64,000 bases of DNA from Microthyrium microscopicum (taxonomy: Eukaryota). The stretch is from assembly GCA_010405405.1 (NCBI GenBank), contig MU004240.1, forward strand, positions 572,316-636,315. Reading direction: 5' to 3'. A program made the position numbers and the translations under genes. Shown one piece after another: positions 4,818-63,590 of the stretch (position 1 is its first letter; every line of letters begins with the position of its first letter). The notes under the pieces are model-generated. The model was not told the DNA's origin. It ran no database searches and was given only the letters and a program-made list of their open reading frames with translations.

Positions 4818-6568
4818 ATGAAATCCTTCCTTTTGGCTTTGGCTGTTGGCCAGACCCTCGCCGCCGCAGTACCACCGCAGCTTAATCAAGGAACGAAAAT
4901 TGTCAAGAGACAGTCGGCGGATCTAGTATCAGCCCTATCAGCGCTCATGGGACCAAGTGGTGGACTTCTTGGTTCGACAATAAAGGGAACACTGGGAGAA
5001 TTCAAAGGAAGCGAGCAAGCCAGTAAGATTAGATTGTGGTAACAGGAATTCGACTTGAGAACTAACACTCTCTCAGCGGAAGCATACATGGAACTTGCGA
5101 AATCGATGGGCGCCACTGAAGATAAGGCTGGTTATATGGGAGTTGTCAGCAATCTCTGGACGAATCGTATGTCGCAACTGTGCAATAAACTTGTGATTAA
5201 AACTAATGTGAAACTAAAGAGGGATACGGAAAGGTACAGCCAAGTGCAGGATCAGCACCACGACGAGAAGACAAGCCCGCAAGAACAAAGGTTGCTGGTT
5301 CTCAATCGGTCAAGATGCGATACGGTCCTTACAAAGTTCAAAACTCTACGTACAAGAGTGCAATGGACGAATACGGAATGCTTGCCAACTATGTGGAAAG
5401 AAACATCGAGAAGTGAGTCCATTATCAGGCCCTAAGCAAAAGGGGTTTAAGTTAACAAAAATAGGCCCTGTGTAAGATGCACACTCCTCGGAATGACTGC
5501 AGGTCTCGAATACGAAAATGGTAAAAACGCCAACATCGACACCGGTCTGTGGCTGCACCAGTATGTTTCTCTCTAATATCATTTTGACCTCGATGCTAAT
5601 GAAAATACAGCATGGTCATGTTCAACGTTGGAGACGACCGCCAGGATGCTACTTGTCACCAGAGAGAGATCTCGGTGCCTCACGTTTTCATCGGAGAGAC
5701 CCCACGAAACTCCGAACGCTTCTTCCTCTCCGGTAATGAGAGAACTCCCGTCATGTTCACGGAGTGGGGAGTAGGAGATGCCGGATACAATATCAAAACC
5801 TCAGACAAGCTAGCAGTCATTATCGATATCATGAACGATACTCCTCGAGATGTCGTAACGTGGCTCACCATTCAATGGGATTTCATTGACGGCCATCCAT
5901 ATGACTACGAAATCAAGCCAATTTGGCTTGATGCCCGACAATGTGGTACATCTGAAGTTAACCCACCCGCTGGACAAAGTAAGTGAATCAACCTTTCAAC
6001 ACATACCAAATTCTAATTCCTATCCTAGAAAAGTTCACAATTGATTATAAGTGGAAATCTGATGTTGCCGGACAAATTGTTGGGACTATTGAGCATCTAC
6101 ACGACGGTAAGATTTCTATCTTCCAGTTCAGAAGGTTATTGTTGCTAATAATCCGCAGGTGGTACAAACATGACAGTCTCTATCGACGGAAGACTGGCTT
6201 GCGACAGTGAATCCCTTTATGGAACCAAACCCGAATACATCAGTGCACCAATGGCACCAATGGCACCAGCTCCAGCTCCAGCAACAAGCGGTACTGCTGC
6301 TGCAGGAGGACACGCAGGTCACGGCAGCGCCACACCACCTGGGGCTGCTGGAGGAGGACATGGACATAGTATGGGTGCAGGAAAGCACATCAGTGTACAA
6401 AAAGCCTGCTATGGACCTTCGCTTTTAGAAAAAACGTTGAAGATTGGACAGACAGTAGCCATGTCAGGATACTACGATTACAACAAATACCCCGGCCAGG
6501 TCCATGAGGATGGCAAGCCAGATGAAGTTATGGGACTAGGCATTGTATATTACCGGGTCAGACGCTAA
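4818..6568 (+). CDS. Uncharacterised secreted protein (multi-exon) with HH / HxH / Met motifs suggestive of a PHM-like copper monooxygenase fold
   Basis: Signal peptide MKSFLLALAVGQTLAAA and a KR site. Spliced exons give 'SVKMRYGPYKV', 'GLEYENGKNANIDTGLWLH/HMVMFN', 'ERFFLSGNERT', 'EHLHD/GGT' and 'DEVMGLGIVYY'. Stop TAA at 6566-6568. Confidence 0.8.
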
Positions 6569-14839: not shown

Positions 14840-17800
14840 ATGGCCAAGGAGTCGGAGTTTAACACTGGACAGAGGAACGTTAACGACGGAAAATTCGGAT
14901 CGCGCCGATATCTCATCAAAATATACTCTCTTTTCGCTCTTTTAATCGTCACACTCGCTTTGATCGGAATCCTCGAGTATGCGAATCGAGGACTGCCAAC
15001 CAACTCCGGAGCGCATTACAATCCATTGAGCACGGGAACCGAATCCATTTCTCATACAGCAAAAGCCACCTCTAGTGGCCAGAGTACTCTTTTGGTCACA
15101 AAGACGGGCAATGTTCGGAAACGACAAGTTCAGACTTTAGTCCCAGGAAATGTATCAGTCGACATAACTTCGACTTCTTCGTCCTCTTCGCTATCAACTT
15201 CATCCTCTGCATCAATCACAGCAGCTACAACTGAGCTGTTTGTTCCTCCAGTAGTCACTGCCGCTCCAGCATCAACATGTCCAGGTGTCTCTCAAGGATG
15301 TACTTGCCCATCTGACAACGAAGTCCCGGACTGTAGTTGTACTGTAAATTCTGCGGCCGCCATCTGCACTTGTACATTTCTCAGCGACACGCCAGATGAA
15401 TCTGGAGCCAACACTCATTACTTTCGACAATGTACCTGTCCCCCAGATCCATGTACAACGTGCATGTGTCCAGCTGGTAAGTAAATTCCCATATGACTCG
15501 TACCCAACGTTGGCATCGTTCTGTGTTCTGGTGTAAATGCGCTATCGTTCGAGGCTAGCCGTCGAAACTCTAGCGAAATGTCATTCCTTTCTCAATTGCT
15601 ATGCGACCCACCGCATGACAAAATATGTGGCGCGCTCCCATCCACTACGATGGCTACTATAATTCACGCTTCGTTATCGAGTGCTTTATTTACCATACAA
15701 GACGCTCGAGCTTTCACGCCTTATCGAATGCATTGGCAAATATAGCACCTCGTGATGAAAAGAGATACTGGAAGCCATCAGCGTTACTGGGAGCGTGCCA
15801 TTTATCTTTGCCATGCATTTTGCGGCTTCTCATCAACCCCCCTGATCAGCAAACAAAAACTAACAGGAATAGACCCGTCTGGAGTATCTTCCCGTAGAAC
15901 GCCCTGTTCATGTCCTGAAGATCCAGTTGCATCAGGCTGCTCTTGTGTAAGCTCAGCTCCGTTCGACTCTACATTGACGATGTGTGATGGTGCTCGAACC
16001 TGTACATGTGGTGTACTTGTCAAGCAAGCGCAATGTGTTCCGCCAGTGGCCGTCTCAAGTTCGTCCAGTACTAGCACAACATCGACAACATCGACTCCTG
16101 AGCCCGTAACAAACTCTACGACATCATCTAGCACTATTTTCCCTTCCTTTACTCCAGTCATCAACACAACGGACATATCCTCAAGCTCTTTTCCATCTCC
16201 GTCTTCGAGCATAGTATCGAGCGTCACGCCCATTGCCACGTTGAATTCGACAACCCCTATAATTCGCCAGACGCCAATTCCGTCTATTGCTCCGAACTTA
16301 ACAACTACCTTCGATCCCACTGCCAATTGCCTCGGGGCAGAAACAGGTTGTGCCTCGATTCCCATGGTAATACTGACGACCACCATAAACGAGAATAACT
16401 TTACAACGGTTGTGCCAGTCACTATCATTCCATCTGGACCTGTTATCGCCAATAGCTCTTCCGTTCCAGCATCTCTTTCCAGCTCAATTGACCGGAGCGA
16501 AACTCCGGTAATTCTTTCTGCATCCCCACCAACGAGATTACCACCAACGACTTCCGTATCTGTATCGTCCCTTCCAGTCTCTGTCCCTCCTGGCCAAACA
16601 TCGGTTACCCCTATCGTATCAATGGTGACGACCACCAATTCTCGAAACCAAGTTATAGTAACACCAATCACTGTAACTCCCAGTGTTATTGCGCCGATTA
16701 TATCGCTATCTACCACTACGAATGCTGAAAGTAAAGTCATCGTAATCCCGGTGACGGTAGTCCCGAGCTTGCTGGCACCAATTGTGTCGTTATCAACCAG
16801 CACCAATTCTCAGGGTCAAGTTTTCGTCAACTCAGTCACTATTACACCTACAGCAACTCCGTTGGCACCCTCCAGACCTCCAATCTTATCCCTTTCAGTT
16901 GGTACAAATAGTCTGGGTGTGGTGACAACCGGCACAATTACTTTGACTCCTGCAACAACGGCCCCAACTGGTATTATTTTCTTCGTTTCCAACTCGCAGA
17001 TAAGCAGTGATGGTAAGTTCTCGCAAAAGACTACAAGGTCTTTTTGAAGCGCATGGACTGTCATGGTAATCTTTTCTAACGAATTGCAGGTACGGTAATT
17101 GGCGTAACACCAGTCACTTTTCTTCAAGCGCAGGCAAATCCATCTCTTCCTGCCATCACTTCTTCTGGCTCGGTTCTTAGTATTCCTACAGCTTATATCG
17201 AGCCCAATGCAACGCCAGGCCCGCAAAGTGGTGGTTCTGGAGCGGGTGGAGGAGGAGGTGGTGGTGGCGGTACAAACACACCTGGAAAGACAAGTTCGTC
17301 AAAATTCACCCTTCGCGCCTGGCCACAAGCAAAGACTTTCTTGGGAGGTTACATGCCAGTTATACTTGCCAAGTTCTACAACATGGCCTGGGGAACGGTG
17401 TTCTATGCCGCTGTCGACTCTGCTGCGGTGAACATGCTCACCAATCCCAATGGAGCCACTGTCGCGCAATTGATTAGTGGCATGGATGGCGCTGCTTGGC
17501 TGTCTTTTGTTCCGTTCATTGCATCCATGGCTGCCGTGCCTTTTGTTACGGACAGCGTGTATTTCGACACTAATTATGGATGTGACAATCCCAATCCGTT
17601 GAACCCAACAAATCCGTGTTGGCCACCCAAGATGACTGCCAATACTTGGGTCATTCGAACCGTTCAGAGTTTATTATCAGTCACTGCCCTTTCTACGGTG
17701 GTGTTGATTGCCATGTGGTTCAAAAAGCCCCATGGAAGTACAAACGATCCAACGAGCATTGCGGCAGTTGCAGCGATTGCAGGCCATCCTGATGTGCAGC

Positions 17801-24035: not shown

Positions 24036-25942
24036 TCAAAGCTTGGCACCTTGCTTCTTTCTCTCCGCGCGATCTTTGTCCCGAAGGAGTCGACGCAAGA
24101 TCTTGCCACTTGGACTCTTTGGAATCTCGTCGATAAACTCTATGCCACCAGCAAGCCATTTATGCTTGCTCTTCTCTCTCTCGACATGACGAGCAATTTC
24201 TCGTTTTGTCATGCGCTCTGATTCCTCGAGACCAATGCTGTTGGACTTGACCACGTAGGCTTTTGGTACCTCACCAGCTCTGTCGTCCGGCACGGCTATG
24301 ACACAGCAGTCGGCAACTGCTGGATGCGTGAGAAGATGAGCCTCGAGTTCTGCTGGAGCCACTTGGAGACCCTGACGGAGTTAGCCAAGAACACAGCCTA
24401 ACCATGCAACTAATCTTACCTTGACTTTAATAAGCTCCTTGATCCGGTCGGTGATAAATATATGCTCGTTACCACTCGGAGCGATTCTCACAACGGCTTC
24501 ATCGCCTGTACGCATCCAACGACCTTGAGAATCAGTGATGTATGTTTCCTTATTCGCTTCTTCGCGCTTGAAGTATCCTAGTGTGACAGCTGGACTCTTT
24601 ACCCAGAGCTCACCAGGGGAATCATAGGCTGTAATTTCCTCCATGGAGACAGGATCGATAATCTTGCATTCCACGTGTGGTATTATGGAGCCCGATGAGC
24701 CAAACCAGATATCGTGACCGGACGAAGAACAAACCACAGTCGCCGTCTCCGTCAGGCCATATCCTTGACGAATTAACCATGATGGATATTGTTTTGAGAG
24801 CTCATCTGCAGTCTCCGCTCCTAGTGGAGCAGCCCCCGTGAAGATGATTTTCACACTGCTTATGTCAAACTTTTCGAGTGCAGCTTTGTTCTTGACCATG
24901 GCAATGATGATTGGCGGGACCAAGTAGAGCGAAGCAATTTTAAATTGTTGAATCGAAGTCAAGTACTGTACCATGTCAAACTTGGGCAAAACAATAACTC
25001 CGTCGCCGCGATATGGTGAGACATGGCAGATGACTACCAACGAGTAAATATGGCTCATTGGAAGGAGTCCTAGGCAATTCTCCTGGTACCGTTTGCCCTC
25101 TGTAAATGGAATCGTCTTTCGATAGAAGTTGTCGAACGAGGCAATTTGCAATGAGTTTGCGATCACGTTAGCATGCGATATCATCACGCCTTTCTGTAGG
25201 ACATTAAAAACAGACAGACCCAATCATTTGACATGAACTTACCGGTAATCCGGATGTTCCACTAGAATAGCATAGGAACGCCGTTTTCTTGGCGCCATCA
25301 CCTTTCTGCCAGTTCAACGACTCCAACTTTGGCAATTTCCCGCCACGCTCGACTAGATCGCTCACCGTCGTGAACCCTTCTGCTTTCGCACCACCTGTTA
25401 TCGCATCTGGTAGCTCGAGTATATAAACGCGATTTTTTGGAATGCCAGCTTTCGCGGCAGCCTCGAGCGTAGTCTTCAACAATGGCAGGCAAGTAAATAT
25501 ACATTTGGCGCCACTGTCTTTCATCTGGAAAGCGACCTCGGCAGTGGAATATGCGGCGTTGGCAGGAGTCTGAAGGCCTCCAAGGAGATGGGTCGCCCAG
25601 GCGAGAGGAAGGGTATCGAGCTGTCTTGCATTAGAGACAGGACCGTCTACGGAAGATTTGACCTACAGTATTCACGCTGAACACGCCAACGACTTTATCC
25701 CACTCGCTGCCTTGATTAACCTGCCATCCAAGCTCTTGTGCTAATCCGCGTGCAAGAAAATCGACGCGCTCTTTCAGCTCCACAGGCGAGACTGTTTGGC
25801 CTGTTACACCACAGGTGAAGAAGGGTCGCGATTCGCTGAGCGGTACTCGGCCATGCTCCTCATTGAAAATGAATTCTGGGATAGAGATGGAATCCGGGGG
25901 GCTGGGCATGGAAGGAACCCATGATGGCGGATAGAAAACCAT
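24036..25942 (-). CDS. Peroxisomal aryl/acyl-CoA ligase (4-coumarate / phenylacetyl-CoA ligase-like, AMP-binding)
   Basis: 'YSSGTSGLP/KGVMISH', 'QGYGLTET', 'MRTGDE', 'DRIKELIKVK', 'IPKSPSGKILRR'. C-terminal PTS1 AKL; 3 introns. Confidence 0.95.
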
Positions 25943-30206: not shown

Positions 30207-32579
30207 ATGTCTCCACCTCGCCGCTCGTCCAAACGCGCGGCTGATCAAAACCCCGTCACTTCGTATTTCCTACCCAGCAATGCCACAAGCTCCTCCCCGG
30301 TCTCCAAAAAGCAAAAGATGATCGAGAACACAATCTCCTCTGCTGAAATTGTGCCTACTTTGAACCAAACTCTACCAATCCCTTCTTCTTCGACACTTTA
30401 CCCATTATCAGCGCACAATGGTACGACAGAGCCGTTCGAAGTCAGATTTGCGAGGGTGAAATCAATCGCTGCTCTGCCAAATGCAGAAAAACCACTGCCT
30501 GTCGGAGAGCCGCCTGTCTGGTCCAAATATCGCAACACGATGTGCGAAACCCTGGACTACTTTCGAGCATACCAGAGCGGAACTTCCTCCAAAGGCGAGC
30601 TGTACCGAGGCAGCTTGATAGCTGGCACCACTTATCCTGGTGACTGGCAGGACGCGAATCGAATCATCAGCCGGCATGGTGGATGTTCCGGAAAACAGGA
30701 TGGAAAGTCTGGGCTTATTAAGAGTCAAAAGTGGGACCTTCAGTCTACAGCCTTTCAGAGGCTCATCGACGACCAAATACCCATCCCCTTTATTGTCGGT
30801 TCAGATTATGAAGGTAGCATCTGTCAGCTTCCCAGCGATAAGCCGTTCTCTGTCATGGGACATTTTCTGCCACAGTATATGTGGATGGCCCGTCAAGGAA
30901 AGCACAACATCATCCGATACTCTCTGCGCCGGTTGCCAGATCAGCCGGCTTGGTGGAATGGTCAAGGATTACCAACTCTCGACGACGTACTACCTCCACC
31001 ACAGGAGCTAGAATGCGCGACGTGCTGCAAGTCATATCTTCAGGTCTATACCGCTTGGATGTGTCTAAATGAGAAATGTGCGGAGTTCTGCAAAGTTTCT
31101 GGCACCCAGCTTGATTGCGCCGTGCTGGAGTACAATCCGCATTTTCTGTGCATGGAGCTGCCAACACCCATTCCTCAGCCCACAGAACCACTTGTTCCAC
31201 ACCAGTTTGTTCCCTCAACCGGTGAAAACTATGCCTTCAATCTCGCAGTTCGTGCAACTAAAGGCAATGTTTGTCCCACGTGCCGACAATGTGTTGGTCG
31301 AAGTCGTCTAGTTGGCAAAGCCTGGGAGTGTGACAATCCTGACTGTAACTATTCCATTACAGTGCCGCAAGGGGTGCTCACCGGCCCAAATGTTACTGCT
31401 GAGCAGCGTCCTTTATTATACAACGGACAGGCAAGATGTAACGACGTGGTTTGCCAGGACTTGAACTCGCCCATCACCATTCGCAAATTCTTCGACGGCG
31501 CATACACGTACAAGCGCTATGACATCCCCGGGACAGACAGCTTCGTTGTTCATATTGCCCCGAATAGAAGTGGTCTGGAAGGACCAGCTCGTCCGCATGA
31601 TCTTTTCGAGTCACTACAGAAGGAGGACGTTGGAATGAAGCGCCGATTTGTGGGGCCACATCGCGGGCACACAGCCAAATTCACGGCACAATTCAGCACC
31701 AACGTGGGCTTACCATACAACTATGTTGCTGCTGAACAGAATATCAACGAATCTACGACGTCTTTTGCTGAGTCTCCACAGGTTTTGCACGACGCTTTCG
31801 CTGGGTGCAACAACTGGGGTAAAGTAGCTGTCGGTGATGGCTATCTGAACTGCAATGAAATGCTGGCACTGGGATATCTGGAGAAAAATAAGATAGGCTA
31901 TCATTCAGATGGCGAAGAAACCCTCGGTCCAACGATCATCACCCTGAGCCTTGGTCACGTTGCCCAAATGAAGCTGCGGATGAAAGAAAAGTACTGGCAA
32001 GGATACAGCGATAAGAACGTCTACGCCGACAAGAAGAAGCCGGTACCTAATTGCTGCAACTATGAAGAGCGGCTCAAGGCCTGGGAGACGATTGCCAGTA
32101 TCCAGGCGGACCCATCGAAACTTCAGGCAAAGAAAATCGAAGAGATCCAGGCTATTCAGGCAGCCACTGTCGCCAGCTCCAAGAAGGCTAAAAAATCGCT
32201 CACGCTCTTCTTGGACATGGAGCTCAACCATGGTGATGTTGTCATCATGCATGGCGAGCCATTACAGGAATTCTTTGAGGTGAGATATTATTGTTATTCT
32301 TCATCAGTCTAAAACTAACTTTCTTAGCATGGTGTTGAACCCAAAGGGAACATGAGATTTGCGCTGACTACCCGACACATTCTTCCACATAAGGTTCAGA
32401 ATGTACTTCCCGACGGTTTTGATGCATCAATTCCGACGGTTCAATTCACCCACCCTCTGGCTTCGTCTCCTGGTCAAGGCTTTGCAGATGGGGTCAATTA
32501 TCCCAAATGGCTTCATCCTGATGCGACCAGCCAAACAGACAATTCTGACCCTCCGCCCACTGAACAGAGCATTGTGTAG
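30207..32579 (+). CDS. AlkB-like 2OG-Fe(II) dioxygenase with N-terminal SRA/SAD-like and Cys-cluster regions
   Basis: 'LDYFRAYQSG...RIISRHGG', CxxC clusters, 'FSTNVGLPYNY', HxD 'IGYHSDGE', 'GPTIITLSLG', 'LNHGDVVIMHG'. After intron 32280-32327: 'HGVEPKGNMRFALTTR' (distal His and RxxxxxR). Confidence 0.88.
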
Positions 32580-33499: not shown

Positions 33500-36400
33500 T
33501 TAAGGCCTTAGCCCTGATCGCGGATGGTGCTTGAAATACTCGGCCGCTTGCTTCCCATCATCACTCTCGCCCGCAGCATCCTCGTCAGAGCCTAGCTCTT
33601 CAGCGGGGGTAACCATTCCATTGCATATTCCGCGCGCGACGATCCCCGGGTGCAGTAGCTCTGCTGTAGAAGTAGAATCAGCACGGACACTGGCAGCAGG
33701 AGTAGTAGCAGGAGCATCACCAACCGGCTGTGAGGTTGTAGTAGCACTCGGCTTCCTCTCTTCATCTATATGCCGCTCTTTCATGAGTTTATAAGCGTGT
33801 TGCTGACCCAATACAAACCCTTGATCGTAGCCTTGTCCGCGACCGAGTGCGAGACCATCGTTGTAGCCAGCGCTGTAGCCCACGTGGTAGTCAGGATGGA
33901 AGCCAGCGGCTGCCTCGCGAGGGATCTGGCTCTGAGAGGGCGTGTCCTTTGCTTTTGTGGAAGGTCCCGACTCCTTGGCTTGGTTGCCGCTTGTAGTTGC
34001 TTGCCCAGCTGGAGGCTGCCAAGCTGCAGGAGAATTTGGCGGCGCATCAACGGACGTGGTGCTCGGCGGATCGATGGCAGTAGGCTGGCGAGCAACGTTG
34101 TTCTGACGACCACGCTCAGGACCATTGGCCGCCTTACCAGTAACAGTAGCCGTTTTCGATCTTGTAACCCGACCAGAAGCAGCAGTACGAGGATCAGGAG
34201 TCGGATGCACAGCAACAGTCCGACTAGAAACAACATCCCGAGAAGCCTCTGAAGGATCGCGCCACCAGGCCGCAGCGACTTGGCCCGTAGGCAAAGACCA
34301 GTTTGGCTTAAAGACGCCCTTCGCTGGAGGATGGTATTCTGTGGGGCCAACATCCATCTGGCGGGCCGTCACCGCCATTCTGAAAGGTCCCTTGAACAAC
34401 ACCTGATGCTGAAAATACTCCTGGATGATTCTATTGTGCATCAACGAGAATCCACCATGCACCACAGGGAATACCAGTAGCTGTGTCGGACAAGCATTGT
34501 GTTTGTTGGTCTTCATCTTTGGATCCTTTTTCCACGTCAAGATCTTTTCTGCCCGCTCTTTGCCTGTCAGACCGTCTAGTTCGTCCTATCGTTCTAGACG
34601 TTTCCGCCAGTTGCAGGAGCCGATCAGGGGCTTTTCGTCTATCCACTTGCCACCTTTGGTATGACCAAAGTACTTTTCGTATTTCAGGCGAAAATACATT
34701 TTGCCAGAACAACCTAGGGACAGACTCATGATGTTATTCCCAACGGCAGATCCGCCAGTAGCTTCACTGTCATCGTGATAGGTCATGCCGGAATCTTCTT
34801 GGTATGCGGCGATGAGCATTTGATTGAATTGCTCGGTAGCGTTGGGGGCTGCTTTGTTTAAATAATAAGTCATACGATCGCGCAAATCATGGATGATTTC
34901 AGGTGCTTGTTCGAACGACGGCCCGCTTGAGGACGCCAGGTATTTGTAAGCTGCACCAATATTGAGTTGGAAATACTGGCTGTATGCTATACCATTGTCC
35001 ACTGCAAACATCTATTAGACCTCGAATCTTTTTGAAAGAGAACAGCGTTCAGGAGTAAAGCGTGTTGGAGGTGGAGACTTACTGCCATATGCACGAATCT
35101 TTGAGTTCCTTTGCACTTCGAAATGCTCTCCATTAGGTCTCTGTGGATCAACTGGTCCATAATCTGCAGCCTGGAGTTCTTTGAAATTCTGATTGACACC
35201 GCCTGGACCTTCTAATGGAGTTTTGTCGGGCGTGCCAACCATGATGAAAGCATCAGCAAGAACCGGATCCAAGAAGGTGTATTTGGTCAATTTGTAGGCG
35301 CCATCCCAGGTTTCCGTAGCTGCGATCAGGTCCTGGCCTGCCTTCTGAATACAATCGACTAGAGAAGGTCCCTCGCCCGTTCTGGGGCTATGATTTGGAA
35401 TACAATCATTTATGCTCAGGATAGAACTTGGAAAGTCCCACGAGCGTGGTGTTGACCCATGATCACTTGGACATTGAATAGCTCCCTCAGCAATGCGTAG
35501 CCGAGGCACGACTTGATGACATCCTCCATCCCCAGCACATACCACTCCACGCATTGCTAATTCCGTCCAGTACTCAATGGCCGGATTCACGCCGGCTCTA
35601 GGTGTGAAGAGTGGTGGAATGAGATCACCCACAACATGTTGATTAGTGAGCTGTGTTTCTTGCTTCAAAAACCGAGGATCATACAGTGCCAAATCGTCGT
35701 TCTGAGGCTCTAACCTGTTTTGCAACTGCCAAAAGCTCTTGCAATTCCCATTGAGACACATCCAGTCGACCACAAAAATCTGCCAGCTGGGCTGTTTACA
35801 AGCCCCGCAAGTCTGTTTGACAGCAGGTGGGAAACCTCCGGAGGGAATTATCTCTGCCACTTCTTTAGCTTTCTCAGGCCACCAAGGGGGATGGCTCCGG
35901 TCCACTCGCTCCATCCGCATGACAGCTGTGGGCTTTAGTTTATCGTCACACAGTCTCATCTCATCCCAGCGATGGGTGACAATGAACCAGTCAAGAACAT
36001 TGTATGTGTTTTCCTTGAAAGAGAACGGTGCACGTTCAAATCCTCCTTGTATTAGAACAGCGACAGGGCGTTGACTTTGAATAGCTTCTGTTACGGCAAT
36101 ATCGTGACCTGGGCCACGCCCCGGGCCTCGAGTGATGATTGTATTGCCGTCAAAATAATCACGGTCAAAAGTGTTCTTGGCCATCAGCAAGCCGAGAAAC
36201 TTGGACGATCCTATTTCCTTCGATGATTTATGGGTATAGATGCCACCATCCATGATTCTGAAGTACGGCACGCATGTGGTCAGGACTTGGCGACTGCTTG
36301 ACTGGACAGGAGGAGTAGATATCAGCGGTTTGGGTTCTTGTCTTACTGAATCATAGGCGAGCTTACTGGCCTCCCCCAGGGTCTTCTGCTCACCATTGAT

Positions 36401-36505
36401 GGTGACTTGTATTGCAAAGGTAGGAGAATGTCGTACAGCATTGGGAATATGGAAAGGTCCGGTGGCTTGAGCCAACTGGTTCGTGGTGCGACGTCTAGGC
36501 GGCAT
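33500..36505 (-). pseudogene. Paralogous SRA-like/AlkB dioxygenase interrupted by one in-frame TAG (34586-34588)
   Basis: Same motif order as the 30207 gene: 'VPYFRIMDGG', 'CGACKQPSWQIF..WMCLN..C', 'YHDDSE', 'IMSLSLG', 'VVHGG..LMH', 'QHQV..RMAVTAR'. One intron ~35003-35082. ORFs 34586..35011 and 33500..34540 are in the same frame, separated only by the TAG. Confidence 0.8.
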
Positions 36506-44979: not shown

Positions 44980-46000
44980 ATGCTTCATCCTATTTCCAAA
45001 GCTCTTGCAGGCTTATCCCTTCTTGGTCTAACTCTTGCAAAGCCAATTGTTAGCAACCCGGACGACACTGGCGACAACGATGCTATTACTGCCGTTTGGC
45101 AACCAGCTGTAGGCAGTTCCTATCAGATCATTCTTGAAGGCGTTCTTGATGTATCTAATGGAATCACTCCAAATGTCGATGTCTATGATATTGATCTCTT
45201 TTATCACCCTGCAGAGACAATCACCACACTTCATAATGCTGGAAAGAAAGTCATCTGTTACTTCAGTGCTGGTACCGCAGAAGATTGGCGCCCTGACTAC
45301 GCTTCTTTCACCAGTGACACCAAAGGCAAATGTCTTCCTGACTGGTCTGGAGAAAGCTGGGTCGATTACACCAAGTCAGCTGTTTGGGATATAATGGCTG
45401 CCAGAATCAAGCTGGCAAGTGAGAAGGGATGCGATGGCATTGATCCTGACGATATGGGTATGATCAATTCCAATTCTGAAGCCGGCAATGATTACTGACG
45501 CGCATCAGACGGCTATGCTAACGACAACGGAGTTGGCCTCAGCGAGAAAGGTGCCACGACCTATCTCAAGAAGTTGGCGGCTGAAGCAGCAAAGTACGGC
45601 ATGGGCACCGGCTTGAAGAACGCACTTGAGATTCTCCCCTCGGTGAAGAATCAAGTCCAGTTCGCCGTCAACGAAGAATGCGTGCAGAATTCAGGAGATT
45701 GCGCTTCATACAAAAGCTTCGGAAAGCCGGTATATCACATCGAGTATGTTGACTCGCGCTCAGTGTCTTCAAGCAAGCTCTCTTCGGACTGCCTGAAGAG
45801 CAACAGTGCCGATTCAGTCGGCTTTACTACTGTTGTAAGTACAATTATTCCGGAGGAATTCTTGATCTAACTGTTCCCAGGTTAAGACTCTGAATCTCGA
45901 TGGCTGGGTAGCTTACTGTGACGGAAAGACCGCGTTGTCACCAACCACAGCTGATGGAGTGGTTAAGGGACAGAAGCAATGTAAAGCAGATTCACCATAG
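44980..46000 (+). CDS. Secreted GH114 endo-alpha-1,4-polygalactosaminidase (Ega3-like)
   Basis: Signal peptide; 'VWQPAVGSSYQIIL', 'VYDIDLF', 'GKKVICYFSAGTAEDWRPD', 'KGCDGIDPDDM/DGY', 'GLKNA', 'FAVNEEC', 'GKPVYHIEY', 'LDGWVAYCDG'. Two introns. Confidence 0.93.
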
Positions 46001-47353: not shown

Positions 47354-50300
47354 GGGGACCGTCAGCCAGTAATTTTGGCGCCAGGATTTGAACTCCTCTG
47401 AACTGAACAGATCTACAGATCTAGCCTAAAGTAGTGATTATATACGTTAGTGGTAATTTTGCGTAATATTATGTAGGGATAAATACTTATATATAAATTT
47501 CCTTTATATGCGTTTTTTAGCTATGATCTTACTTAAAATACTACTAAAATAGATACTATTAAATAGCGTTTAATAATAATTACTATAGTAGTAATAATTC
47601 TACTACTTCTATATCTTATAATAGCTAAGGATTAAAGAGAGAGAGAACTACTACTAGAATACTACTATTTTAACTAGAATCTTAAGGATAGATTAGACTA
47701 CTAAATTGTTATTAAGTATTAGTATATTACGCTAAATCTATATTAAAGAATGCCTATAGTACTAATTTATATAGCGTAAATTTTTAAAGCAAGAGATCTT
47801 AAAGCTAGTAAAGCTCTTTAATCTTAAGAATCTTTCTCTACGAGATTATTTAAATCTATACTAAAAGAGGCCCTTTCTGCTTTATATAGTATTATATAGG
47901 TTAGCAAAAATATATACTTATAATAATATCTATTAGCACTTTAGTAAAAGTATAATATACCTAAAGACCTACTTTAATACTACTATTATATATCTTAACT
48001 AACGTTATACTAAATTCCTACTTAAATTCTATCCTTTTTTAAACGTAGAAAGATGTTGCTAATACTCTAAAGTAATTAATTGCGCTAGTAGTAGTAATAT
48101 CTTTTAGGGTTACATTAATAAGACCTATATTAATATCTATAGGCCTAAAGGACTAATTTAGTAGTTATTATATAGTAGATATGATAAAGCTTACTGTTTA
48201 AAACACTAGGTCGTTTGCTATCCTAATAAATTAATAATAGTAATAGATTTAGGATATCTAAGAGGTTTAAACAATCTAGGCATATTACTAGCGTTAGGTC
48301 TTAAAGATAAACTTTAATAAGTTAGTATTTATCCTATATAGATGTAAATATAACTTACTTCTTTTAAATATTTAATAAAGGCTTAAAATTACTACTATAT
48401 AGTGACGTAGCCTATTTAAACAATGATTTAATTATATTACTATTCTAAGAGAATCTAACCTAAATTTAGTACGACTTTAATAAATAGATATCTAAATATC
48501 GTATTGCTATTAAGTAGGTATTTAGTAATATAAAAGCCCTCTTTAAGGGAGAGATATCTAATTTTAGATTAGGTCTATAGATAGGATTAATACTAGTTAA
48601 AGTGTATATATTAATATTATTCTTACTTACTAACTACTATACCTATTATTAAAGGAATGTAGTATTTTCTTGCTTTTAAATTAATCTACTAACTATTTAG
48701 TAGTATCTTAATCTAAATAGTATATTTAATAATATAGTAGATAAAGGGGATTTAGAAGATATTAAGTATTTATTATAGTGAAGGGTAGAAAAGAAGTTAT
48801 AGAGTAAAGTTAGATATTCTTATTAAAAAAGGAGAAGTTAATAGGGTAGGGCTAGCTAATTATTTAACCCTAGTGTATACTTTTAAAGCTTTTAGTATCT
48901 ATTATAACATTTCTATAAAAACTAGCTTTTATATTTACTACTAATTTATATAAGAAATACTAGAATATCCTTCTTAAAGCCTATTATTGCAAAGACTCTT
49001 TAATATGCCCTTTATCTCTATTATCTCTAAGCGTATAATCTTTACCTCTTCCCTTAATTCTATAACTTTAATCCCTCTACTACTACTACTACTACTAATA
49101 TTCTTATTATTAATAATATTCCTATAATAAGTACTATCCCTATCTAAATTTATTCTATCTAACTAAAGAACTAGATAATTATAAATACCTATAACGCTAT
49201 TGATTTTAGCTATGAATTTTTAAATTCTATAACCCTAAAGAATACTTATATTCCTACTTCAAACTAGTAGAGCCTATGACCTAGTGGGAGTTCTAAGAAC
49301 TAGTCTAGAGCGAGAGGTAGTTGCTTTAATACTCTAATCTAGTGCTAGTAATAAAGATGTTAAAGGTAATAGTAATAATAGTAGATACGAAGTATCTTTA
49401 GGCTTAATGGTATTTATCTTAACATCTTTATCCTCTTTAATACTAATTAGAAAAGCTCGCTTCTTAGAGAACGTAAGGCTAAGTATTTCTTAAAGTTCTA
49501 TAGTATCTTTATAGCGTTAATGAATAGCATCTTATAGGGACCTCTTCTATTAAATAGTATTCTTATACCTTTAGAATGTCTTTATAAATAGGTCTAGGTT
49601 AATGTAGAATTTATCTATTAGTATAATATATCTTAACTCTTTTTCTAGTTTAATAATCTATAGTTTAATAGCTTTCTTAATAGCCTATTAAAGAGCCTAT
49701 CTAGAGAGGCCTTATAGTAAACTAGTATCACTTTTATACTTAGCTATAATATCTTTCTACTACTAAGTCTTCTATTTAGTAATAGCGTTACTACTATTAC
49801 TACTATACGCTTATCTATAATGATTTGTAACCCTAATAATATTAATAAGGGTGTAAGATTTGTATTCTAATTGCTAGCGTATTTCTTAACGTAAAGATAT
49901 AGTTAAAGGTACCCTAGTAGACGCCTTAGTAGCTACTTAACCTCCTCTTCTATAAGAGTGCCCTCTAGTAGTAATTTAGCTAGTAGAGGGCTATATTAAT
50001 AGAATTTAAAGAGCTTATAATAAGCTCTAAGAGTCGTTCTAGCTATAACTATCTAATACTATAGTGGTTTAATTTTATGAGTAGTTGTTAAGAATTGTTA
50101 TCTAATCTTTATGCTGCTATAACTCCTATTAAGACTTAAAATACGCTAGATTCTATGATATATTCTATAAGTCTAATATTGGCGTAGCCCTTAGAGATTA
50201 AGGCTATTATAATAGGAATCTTATTAGCTAAGAATTGTCTAGTAGTAGAGGAATTAAGTTATCTAACTCTAGATTAATTTGGATTAATAGGTATTAAAAT

Positions 50301-50732
50301 AAAAGTAGTATTAAATTATTTAATATTAGCTATTATATCTTAAATGATTTACTAATGGTAGTAATAAGATTATCTAGATTTCTACTTTATCTATATAAAC
50401 TATAGTATTTTATACTCCTTTAATATTAAATTTAGCGTTATTAACATATTACTACTTTAGCGCGTTTAATGCGTAAAATCTACTATCTAAATATTAATAT
50501 TCTATACTACTAAAGATCTATATCTTAAGATTATTATATAACGTTGAAATTACTATTATATCTAACCTATTTTGGTTAAAACATACGCTAAAAAGCTAGT
50601 TTAAACGAGTTTAAAGCCTTTGAACTGAGTTTAAATGGTTTAAACTAAGTTCAAAGCGCTATACCCTTTTTGGCGAAGATCTACCCCTTCGGCGTTCTCC
50701 GTTGGAAGTCTTTTAAACTGCTGACGGTCCCC
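47354..50732. mobile_element. Full-length PIF/Harbinger DNA transposon (3379 bp), heavily RIP-mutated
   Basis: 13-bp perfect TIR GGGGACCGTCAGC (47354-47366 and 50720-50732). 3-bp TSD ATT (47351-47353 and 50733-50735). Interior is very AT-rich with TpA excess and has no ORF in the track. Confidence 0.93.
47523..48720 (+). pseudogene. RIP-inactivated Harbinger (DDE_Tnp_4-type) transposase
   Basis: As read: 'IF*GYINKTYINIYRPKG..**LLYSRYDKAYCLKH*VVCYPN', 'LLYSDVAY', 'FNK*ISKYRIAIK*VFSN'. Reversing C>T/G>A changes gives WGYIDGT..ICRP..YSGY.K.H.LK.Q...PDG, LYGD.AY and FNK.MS..RIAVE.VFG. Bounds approximate. Confidence 0.85.
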
Positions 50733-51417
50733 ATTGCGGTGCCTGGGTCACCAAAGGTGAAGAATGGGGGTGTCACCCGAGGGTAGGGGGGCATTGTCCA
50801 GTGTGACGGTACAGAGTAAGTCTGTGTAAAGTTACGTAGTGTCGGGGAGGCTGAGTTGTAACGTCAACTCTAAATTTCAATAATCTGCGCAAGGAGGGCT
50901 ACTACATTTGGTGGCGAACAAGGAGTTTATTTTATGATTACCTGGTTCTAGAGTCAACGTCCAAGCAACGGTCATGGTAGATCACTTTAGAATGTTTGGA
51001 AGAAGAGTTTTTGATCAAATATTTTTGATTGTTTTTGCTAACCGCTGTGAAAGCGTTTTTGTAGCCGCTGTACAATGCCTTGGAGCAGATATGAGACTGC
51101 TGTGCTCAACATGTACAACTAGCTATGATCCAGGTGATTTCCCAAGGTATGTTATTTCTGTTTGCCAAAAATGCACCTTGCCAACCCGCCTAATTGCCGT
51201 GTCCCAACAAAAGTTCAAGAAGTGAAATGAAAGGCTATGCATGAAGCCGCGGAGGTGAAACGTGCCCTCGCGGGAATCTCCTAAGAGTAACAAGAAGTGA
51301 AAAATGAACTGTTATCTAAAAGTTAAACAACAAGAATTCATTCTCCGCAAGTCACAGACTAAACGGAGCAAGCTGTACGTGGTATAATGCTGGAAAAAAG
51401 TTCAAATCGCCAAGAGA

Positions 51418-59871: not shown

Positions 59872-63590
<3,719 letters not shown>

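Follow-up and report, generated by a model that had tools for sequence, protein, structure and literature searches.

We examined a 64,000-nucleotide (nt) stretch from Microthyrium microscopicum, a Dothideomycete of the order Microthyriales, covering positions 572,316 to 636,315 of the forward strand of contig MU004240.1 (assembly GCA_010405405.1); this whole stretch is called the window, and all coordinates below are positions within it. Our subject is a minus-strand gene at 33500..36505, ending at a natural TAA (33500-33502), whose reading frame is broken by a single in-frame TAG at 34586..34588 (middle A at 34587) inside the predicted catalytic domain of an AlkB-type dioxygenase. The public annotation divides the gene exactly at this codon into two adjacent models, each labelled 'hypothetical protein': the upstream model KAF2665471.1 (P0003; 612 amino acids) runs on the minus strand from ATG 36505 to the TAG and ends RKRLER, and the downstream model KAF2665470.1 (P0002; 286 amino acids) runs from ATG 34516, the next Met after the TAG, to the end of the gene. 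The two models are halves of one broken gene. An intact paralogue (paralogue 1: KAF2665469.1, P0075; 774 amino acids) lies on the plus strand at 30207..32579, with an intron at 32280-32327, and is convergent with the broken copy; the two proteins are 26% identical.

On the minus strand the codons around the stop read CGT CTA GAA CGA TAG GAC GAA CTA GAC (TAG at 34588..34586) and translate, with their surroundings, as GSCNWRKRLER*DELDGL, bearing out the position and peptide given in an earlier note on this DNA. Public sequencing runs were compared with the window over 33500-36505 as contigs, not as reads. Two DNA runs, re-assembled independently, gave one contig each with no differences from the window; both probably represent the source sample of the assembly and hence are not independent of it. 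A run from another sample and another study gave a 3047-nt spliced contig, again without differences. This run, labelled beforehand only as guessed RNA, was taken as RNA-derived because its contigs carry three GT..AG joints; it provides one data set, in the form of contigs. The RNA contig is collinear with the window from 33725 to 35001 and thus crosses the TAG, so that the mRNA consensus is UAG. No contig carries an alternative letter at the stop, and no splice joint lies near it. A further run with a small word share contributed contigs at 33744-34083 and 35302-35601 only, at a depth of at most 5; neither covers the TAG, and they have no bearing on another strain.

Because the DNA contigs and the spliced RNA contig equal the window through the stop, an assembly error and an intron are both excluded. 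The first had been among the options listed in the earlier note and is contradicted by the two DNA re-assemblies as well as by the RNA contig, all of which carry the TAG. For the second, removal of a 36-nt GT..AG stretch around the TAG would preserve the frame, yet no joint is present there in the RNA contig, in keeping with the earlier view that no intron takes out the stop. The nonsense codon is real and lies in the genome itself.

The three joints lie elsewhere in the gene, all on the minus strand. An 81-nt GT..AG intron at 35002..35082 (joint 35001/35083) separates the exon carrying the TAG, exon 2, from the upstream part. A 61-nt GT..AG intron in the C-terminal tail (33664..33724) is used alternatively, since spliced and unspliced RNA contigs were both seen; its removal alters the last residues and gives the form found in KAF2665470.1. 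The third, a 65-nt GT..AG intron at 36302..36366 (joint 36301/36367), is absent from the annotated model: it is read as coding in KAF2665471.1, where its residues align with the family motif KP.P..G.P.VW, yet the one observed transcript form lacks it, and its removal changes the reading frame set by the annotated ATG 36505. In this spliced form ATG 36505 opens a 70-residue open reading frame (ORF), and the long frame starts from ATG 36633, 36441 or 36396, behind several upstream ATGs, a reading that assumes collinearity with the window for the contig's 412 nt beyond 36505. The annotation may be wrong at the N-terminus; if it is not, the main transcript form adds another defect to this copy.

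Sequence profiles and structural models together predict three parts in the encoded protein: an SRA-like domain, a Cys-rich region and an AlkB-type dioxygenase. With the TAG read as Trp, exon 2 matches Pfam PF13532 (2OG-FeII_Oxy_2) at 35.3 bits against a gathering cut-off of 31.2, and the annotated upstream model alone does so at 34.9 bits. A single-sequence search of the PDB found no match up to E = 1; a profile of 21 family members, in turn, matches ALKBH3 at E 2.4e-9 and also ALKBH2 and Escherichia coli AlkB. The AlphaFold model of the catalytic part has a mean predicted local distance difference test score (pLDDT) of 80.8, and its top Foldseek matches are ALKBH3 and ALKBH2 (E about 1e-7; template modelling (TM) score 0.46-0.56). 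The Pfam match and this ALKBH-like predicted fold agree with the earlier placement of the stop within an AlkB-type catalytic domain. In exon-2 numbering, the HxD iron ligands H75 and D77 (34769..34777, minus strand) align upstream of the stop, and the distal His H198 with the two Arg residues R207 and R213 (34361..34408, minus strand) align downstream of it; the whole HxD...H triad and RxxxxxR pair fall on family-conserved columns. The frame through this domain is interrupted at residue 138, in the DNA and in the mRNA contig alike. In the predicted model residue 138 sits in a helix (residues 131-141) of a family-specific helical insert of ~60 residues, and strands 173-179, 184-188, 196-202 and 206-215 all lie downstream of it.

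The SRA-like domain is placed at 35867..36205 on the minus strand (residues 33-145 of the model of 35084-36301). The N-terminal model has a mean pLDDT of 65 overall, with values of 70-92 for the SRA-like domain alone, and its top Foldseek matches are the SRA domains of SUVH5 and UHRF1 (E 7e-5 to 1e-3; TM score on the target 0.41-0.55). Pfam PF02182 (SAD_SRA) has no match in the protein of the broken copy; among the 17 homologues scanned, three have sub-threshold matches to it (18.5-24.4 bits against a cut-off of 30.7). The N-terminal region also contains two Cys clusters. The first, at 35741..35809 on the minus strand, keeps all four Cys that are invariant in the family alignment; the second has lost two of five Cys, and its region models poorly. 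Proteins combining an SRA-like domain, two Cys clusters and an AlkB-type domain form a family with at least 130 representatives at E <= 1e-10. A limited literature search did not meet a description of this SRA-AlkB architecture, and among the literature naming Microthyrium microscopicum, screened by title only, none of the titles listed concerned this gene. The C-terminal tail, otherwise of low complexity, contains a Gly-spaced repeat, GYSAGYNDGLALGRGQGYDQGFVLG, at 33785-33868 on the minus strand (residues 378-405, exon-2 numbering), with a sub-threshold match to Pfam Yae1_N (17-18 bits against a cut-off of 27.5).

Beyond the TAG the frame stays open for 361 codons and includes H198, R207 and R213, much as the earlier estimate of about 360 further codons with the distal His and the 2-oxoglutarate-binding Arg residues had it. 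Read in any of the other five frames, these 1083 nt contain 8-20 stops, and none of 5000 shuffles of this downstream stretch was free of stops.

The protein itself has diverged strongly. When 1.84 billion representatives were searched exhaustively with HMMER, only the two halves of the gene itself exceeded 36% identity; among 5.8 billion clusters the matches were the gene itself and two others at 28% and 27%, and 461 candidates included no longer relative at E <= 0.001. In a FastTree phylogeny of 150 catalytic domains, no tip has a longer terminal branch than the broken copy (1.81; median 0.35). Across 63 conserved catalytic columns (150 rows, in which paralogue 1 was entered twice) agreement is 68% before the stop and 63% after it, where the family averages 88% and 90%, respectively, and the near-invariant catalytic residues changed are E60Q, G78S, D183G, G189N and E197Q. 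Across 78 conserved N-terminal columns the copy matches 59% against 84% in the family, the sixth lowest value of 100. As the copy has diverged about equally before and after the TAG, nothing suggests extra decay downstream, and the alignments suggest that weak constraint on the catalytic domain is long-standing. Judged by these comparisons, the broken copy is a lineage-specific, strongly diverged member of its family.

The earlier note took the stop to replace a Trp. At the stop column, counted over 149 distinct homologues (with P0151 left out by a coverage filter), W occurs in 51, N in 17, H in 16, K in 11, Y in 9, Q in 8, L in 7 and other residues in 20, with gaps in 10; Trp is thus the commonest residue there, in 51 of 149 homologues, and is not invariant. 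Of the 86 rows with a residue one base away from TAG, 51 have W. In the MAFFT alignment W stands at this column both in paralogue 1 (RLKAW against RLER*) and in the nearest tree neighbour, P0009. A TGG>TAG change is therefore the most likely origin of the stop, though not proven; the identification of Trp stands to that extent.

A repeat-induced point mutation (RIP) context had also been proposed for this change. It is formally present, yet it is uninformative because every TGG>TAG change is TpG>TpA, and the indices of the gene (TpA/ApT 0.62; (CpA+TpG)/(ApC+GpT) 1.40) are without a RIP signature, judged by index thresholds. With no RIP indices in the gene and paralogues only 26% identical as proteins, we reject RIP as the source of the TAG. 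Elsewhere in the window there is an AT-rich 3-kb block at 47500-50500 (G+C content near 0.25, range 0.23-0.29; TpA/ApT 1.61; (CpA+TpG)/(ApC+GpT) 0.26), and from 47426 to 50937 there is no stop-to-stop ORF of at least 80 amino acids; the block is probably a RIP-degraded repeat. Comparison of its indices with those of the gene indicates that RIP-like mutation acted in this genome and not visibly on the gene.

We think it probable that the TAG is a young nonsense allele giving a truncated, catalytically dead product. Under this explanation, a TGG>TAG change would have struck a lineage-specific, diverged SRA-like/Cys-rich/AlkB-type copy that is still transcribed and spliced, into an mRNA carrying UAG in the data available. 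Translation should stop inside the family-specific helical insert because the available mRNA carries UAG. The distal His, the two Arg residues that bind 2-oxoglutarate and the final four beta-strands of the jelly-roll would then be missing, and a product that lacks them should not be an active dioxygenase. The downstream frame would be intact only because too little time has passed. We infer both the youth of the lesion and the inactivity of the product. A recent nonsense allele was one of the options of the earlier note and is the best supported of them, since DNA and spliced mRNA both carry the TAG, the frame behind it is intact and no other family member has diverged further; the only transcript form seen, which also removes 65 nt of homology-supported coding sequence, lends it further support.

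Several observations weigh against this explanation. The 361 stop-free downstream codons and the retention of all five iron and 2-oxoglutarate ligands would be equally expected if the frame were still used. The comparison covers one isolate and found no orthologue, so that 'young' and 'strain-specific' are tentative descriptions. Contigs drop minority variants, and partial editing at 34587 could stay hidden in them. Finally, ordinary nonsense mutations do not usually fall, as this stop does, in the loop of a hairpin of unusual stability. RNA folding predicts a minus-strand stem-loop at 34561..34615 whose 19 base pairs form five helical segments, with a perfect 7-bp stem, CGUCUAG/CUAGACG (34594-34600 paired with 34573-34579), at the core. 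Its loop, AUAGGA (34584-34589), contains the UAG, whose adenosine has a predicted unpaired probability of 1.0; 34% of all adenosines fall in hairpin loops. The 61-nt fold has a minimum free energy of -20 kcal/mol (z -4.41), a stability reached by none of 200 shuffles. Among 3241 windows along the gene it belongs to the most stable 1.9%, and among the 22 UAG trinucleotides it ranks first. When the peptide was re-coded synonymously (n=3000), 0.73% of the sequences folded as well, and 0.43% did so with the A in a hairpin loop.

This last test was calibrated on every fourth codon of both paralogues at p <= 0.0067. Nine of 388 windows (2.3%), at five places, passed, and the stop window was the only one of these in exon 2 (about 120 tested); the true background of the hairpin test is hence about 2%, not 0.7%. 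The fold is unchanged with G at the site. Folding the plus strand as single-stranded DNA gives the same shape and puts the mutated C in the loop. Unpaired cytosines deaminate faster, and the hairpin loop might itself be a mutational hot spot, which would explain the mutation and not a function.

The hairpin and the neighbours of the site (-1 U, +1 G, +2 G, +3 A) bear on a different explanation, also among the options of the earlier note, in which a sexual-stage adenosine-to-inosine (A-to-I) deaminase turns UAG into UIG, read as UGG (Trp), and a full-length dioxygenase is made only then. The hairpin would present the adenosine in a loop closed by the perfect 7-bp stem, and an SRA-reader/AlkB-type dioxygenase would be switched on only in Dothideomycete fruiting bodies. 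The 5' U that the earlier note had cited as preferred by editing is present. Edited sites in Fusarium graminearum have -1 U in 86% of cases, A or G at +1 and G at +2, lie in hairpin loops in 62% of cases and are edited more in stable hairpins (PMC4817773), preferences that the neighbours and the loop match here. The hairpin is rarer than composition or protein sequence predicts and is the sole such window of about 120 in exon 2, editing would restore the commonest residue at the column, as in paralogue 1 and P0009, and the downstream ORF and its ligands are intact. Comparable structure occurs, however, in 2.3% of windows, and the loop may be a mutational hot spot by the deamination argument above. 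The A>G change that had been suggested as a check at 34587 was not seen in the one RNA data set: its contig shows A, although as a consensus and in RNA not known to come from the sexual stage, and partial editing is possible because rare variants drop out of contigs. Near-invariant residues and part of a Cys cluster are lost, and the transcript form seen breaks the annotated N-terminal frame. Moreover, the host belongs to a class without documented editing. In the literature consulted, sexual-stage mRNA editing is documented only in Sordariomycetes and Pezizomycetes, including Pyronema (PMC11087585, PMC11156358, PMC7306014, PMC13431901); it is reported absent in Botrytis, and it depends on an Ame1-Tad3 interaction that originated within Sordariomycetes (PMC11087585, PMC7306014). 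The literature searched yielded no report of A-to-I mRNA editing in Dothideomycetes; the matching papers either name this class in connection with gene expression alone or, by their abstracts, deal with Fusarium graminearum. According to PMC7306014, pseudothecia-forming fungi had not been examined for editing as of 2020. Because a low prior has to be weighed against a moderately unusual context, we consider editing of this stop unlikely.

The truncated protein may instead be the working product, an SRA-like reader with the first Cys cluster that serves a non-catalytic role, such as binding or competition; the dioxygenase half would then be dispensable and left to drift. The SRA-like domain and the first Cys cluster model confidently (pLDDT 70-96), the former resembles SRA domains of known structure, the latter retains its four Cys, and a transcript is made and spliced; yet few family members have diverged more in the N-terminal part (59% against 84% of columns), the splice form seen disturbs the N-terminal frame, half a jelly-roll is unlikely to fold, and the intact downstream ORF is explained no better than by recency. 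We regard a functional truncated product as rather improbable. Low-level translational readthrough of the UAG, yielding some full-length enzyme, would fit the intact downstream frame and the presence of local RNA structure, but the stop lies inside the loop and not upstream of a stimulatory structure, and the UAG-GAC context is not known to match a readthrough motif, which leaves this account with very little probability. An artefact, whether an error of sequencing or assembly or a small intron that takes out the stop, is scarcely credible when two DNA runs and the RNA-derived run agree with the window and the three splice joints all lie away from the stop.

A scan of the window for two ORFs of at least 100 codons parted by one stop found seven pairs, of which only the AlkB-like copy has a TAG. 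The other six are parted by TGA or TAA (5040-5042, 17299-17301, 24381-24383, 25631-25633, 45496-45498 and 63174-63176) and may be in-frame introns or chance.

What the locus means depends on which explanation holds. If the TAG is a plain nonsense allele, the outcome is a routine annotation correction in which two models become one SRA-like/AlkB-type gene. If the codon is edited, stage-specific A-to-I recoding would reach a third, very large fungal class, and mRNA recoding at the sexual stage would be indicated for the first time beyond Sordariomycetes and Pezizomycetes; this would bear on whether fungal mRNA editing had a single or multiple origins and would tie a modified-base reader/oxidase to sexual development.

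Among known systems, the predicted catalytic part resembles human ALKBH3 and ALKBH2 and Escherichia coli AlkB (8jnr, 2iuw, 3btz, 2fd8) in its double-stranded beta-helix (TM score about 0.5) and in its HxD...H and RxxxxxR residues, and differs from them in sequence (identity about 17%) and in carrying the ~60-residue insert with the stop, a large SRA-like domain and a Cys-rich region. The closest parallels for an edited stop are PUK1 and roughly 70 other premature-stop-corrected genes in Fusarium graminearum, with counterparts in Neurospora, as described in two reports (PMC4817773, PMC11156358). The present gene is similar in having an in-frame UAG in the catalytic domain of an otherwise open gene, an annotation split or truncated at that codon, U at -1, an adenosine in a predicted hairpin loop and Trp as the residue that editing would give. 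It is unlike these genes in that no editing was observed, the class is without documented editing, a spliced transcript is present in RNA not known to be of the sexual stage and no orthologue above 36% identity was found that could show the TAG to be conserved. The young nonsense allele that we favour has its counterpart in an ordinary unitary pseudogene or null allele, which the gene resembles in its one stop in an intact frame, in its transcript and in being a fast-diverging redundant paralogue adjoining an intact copy.

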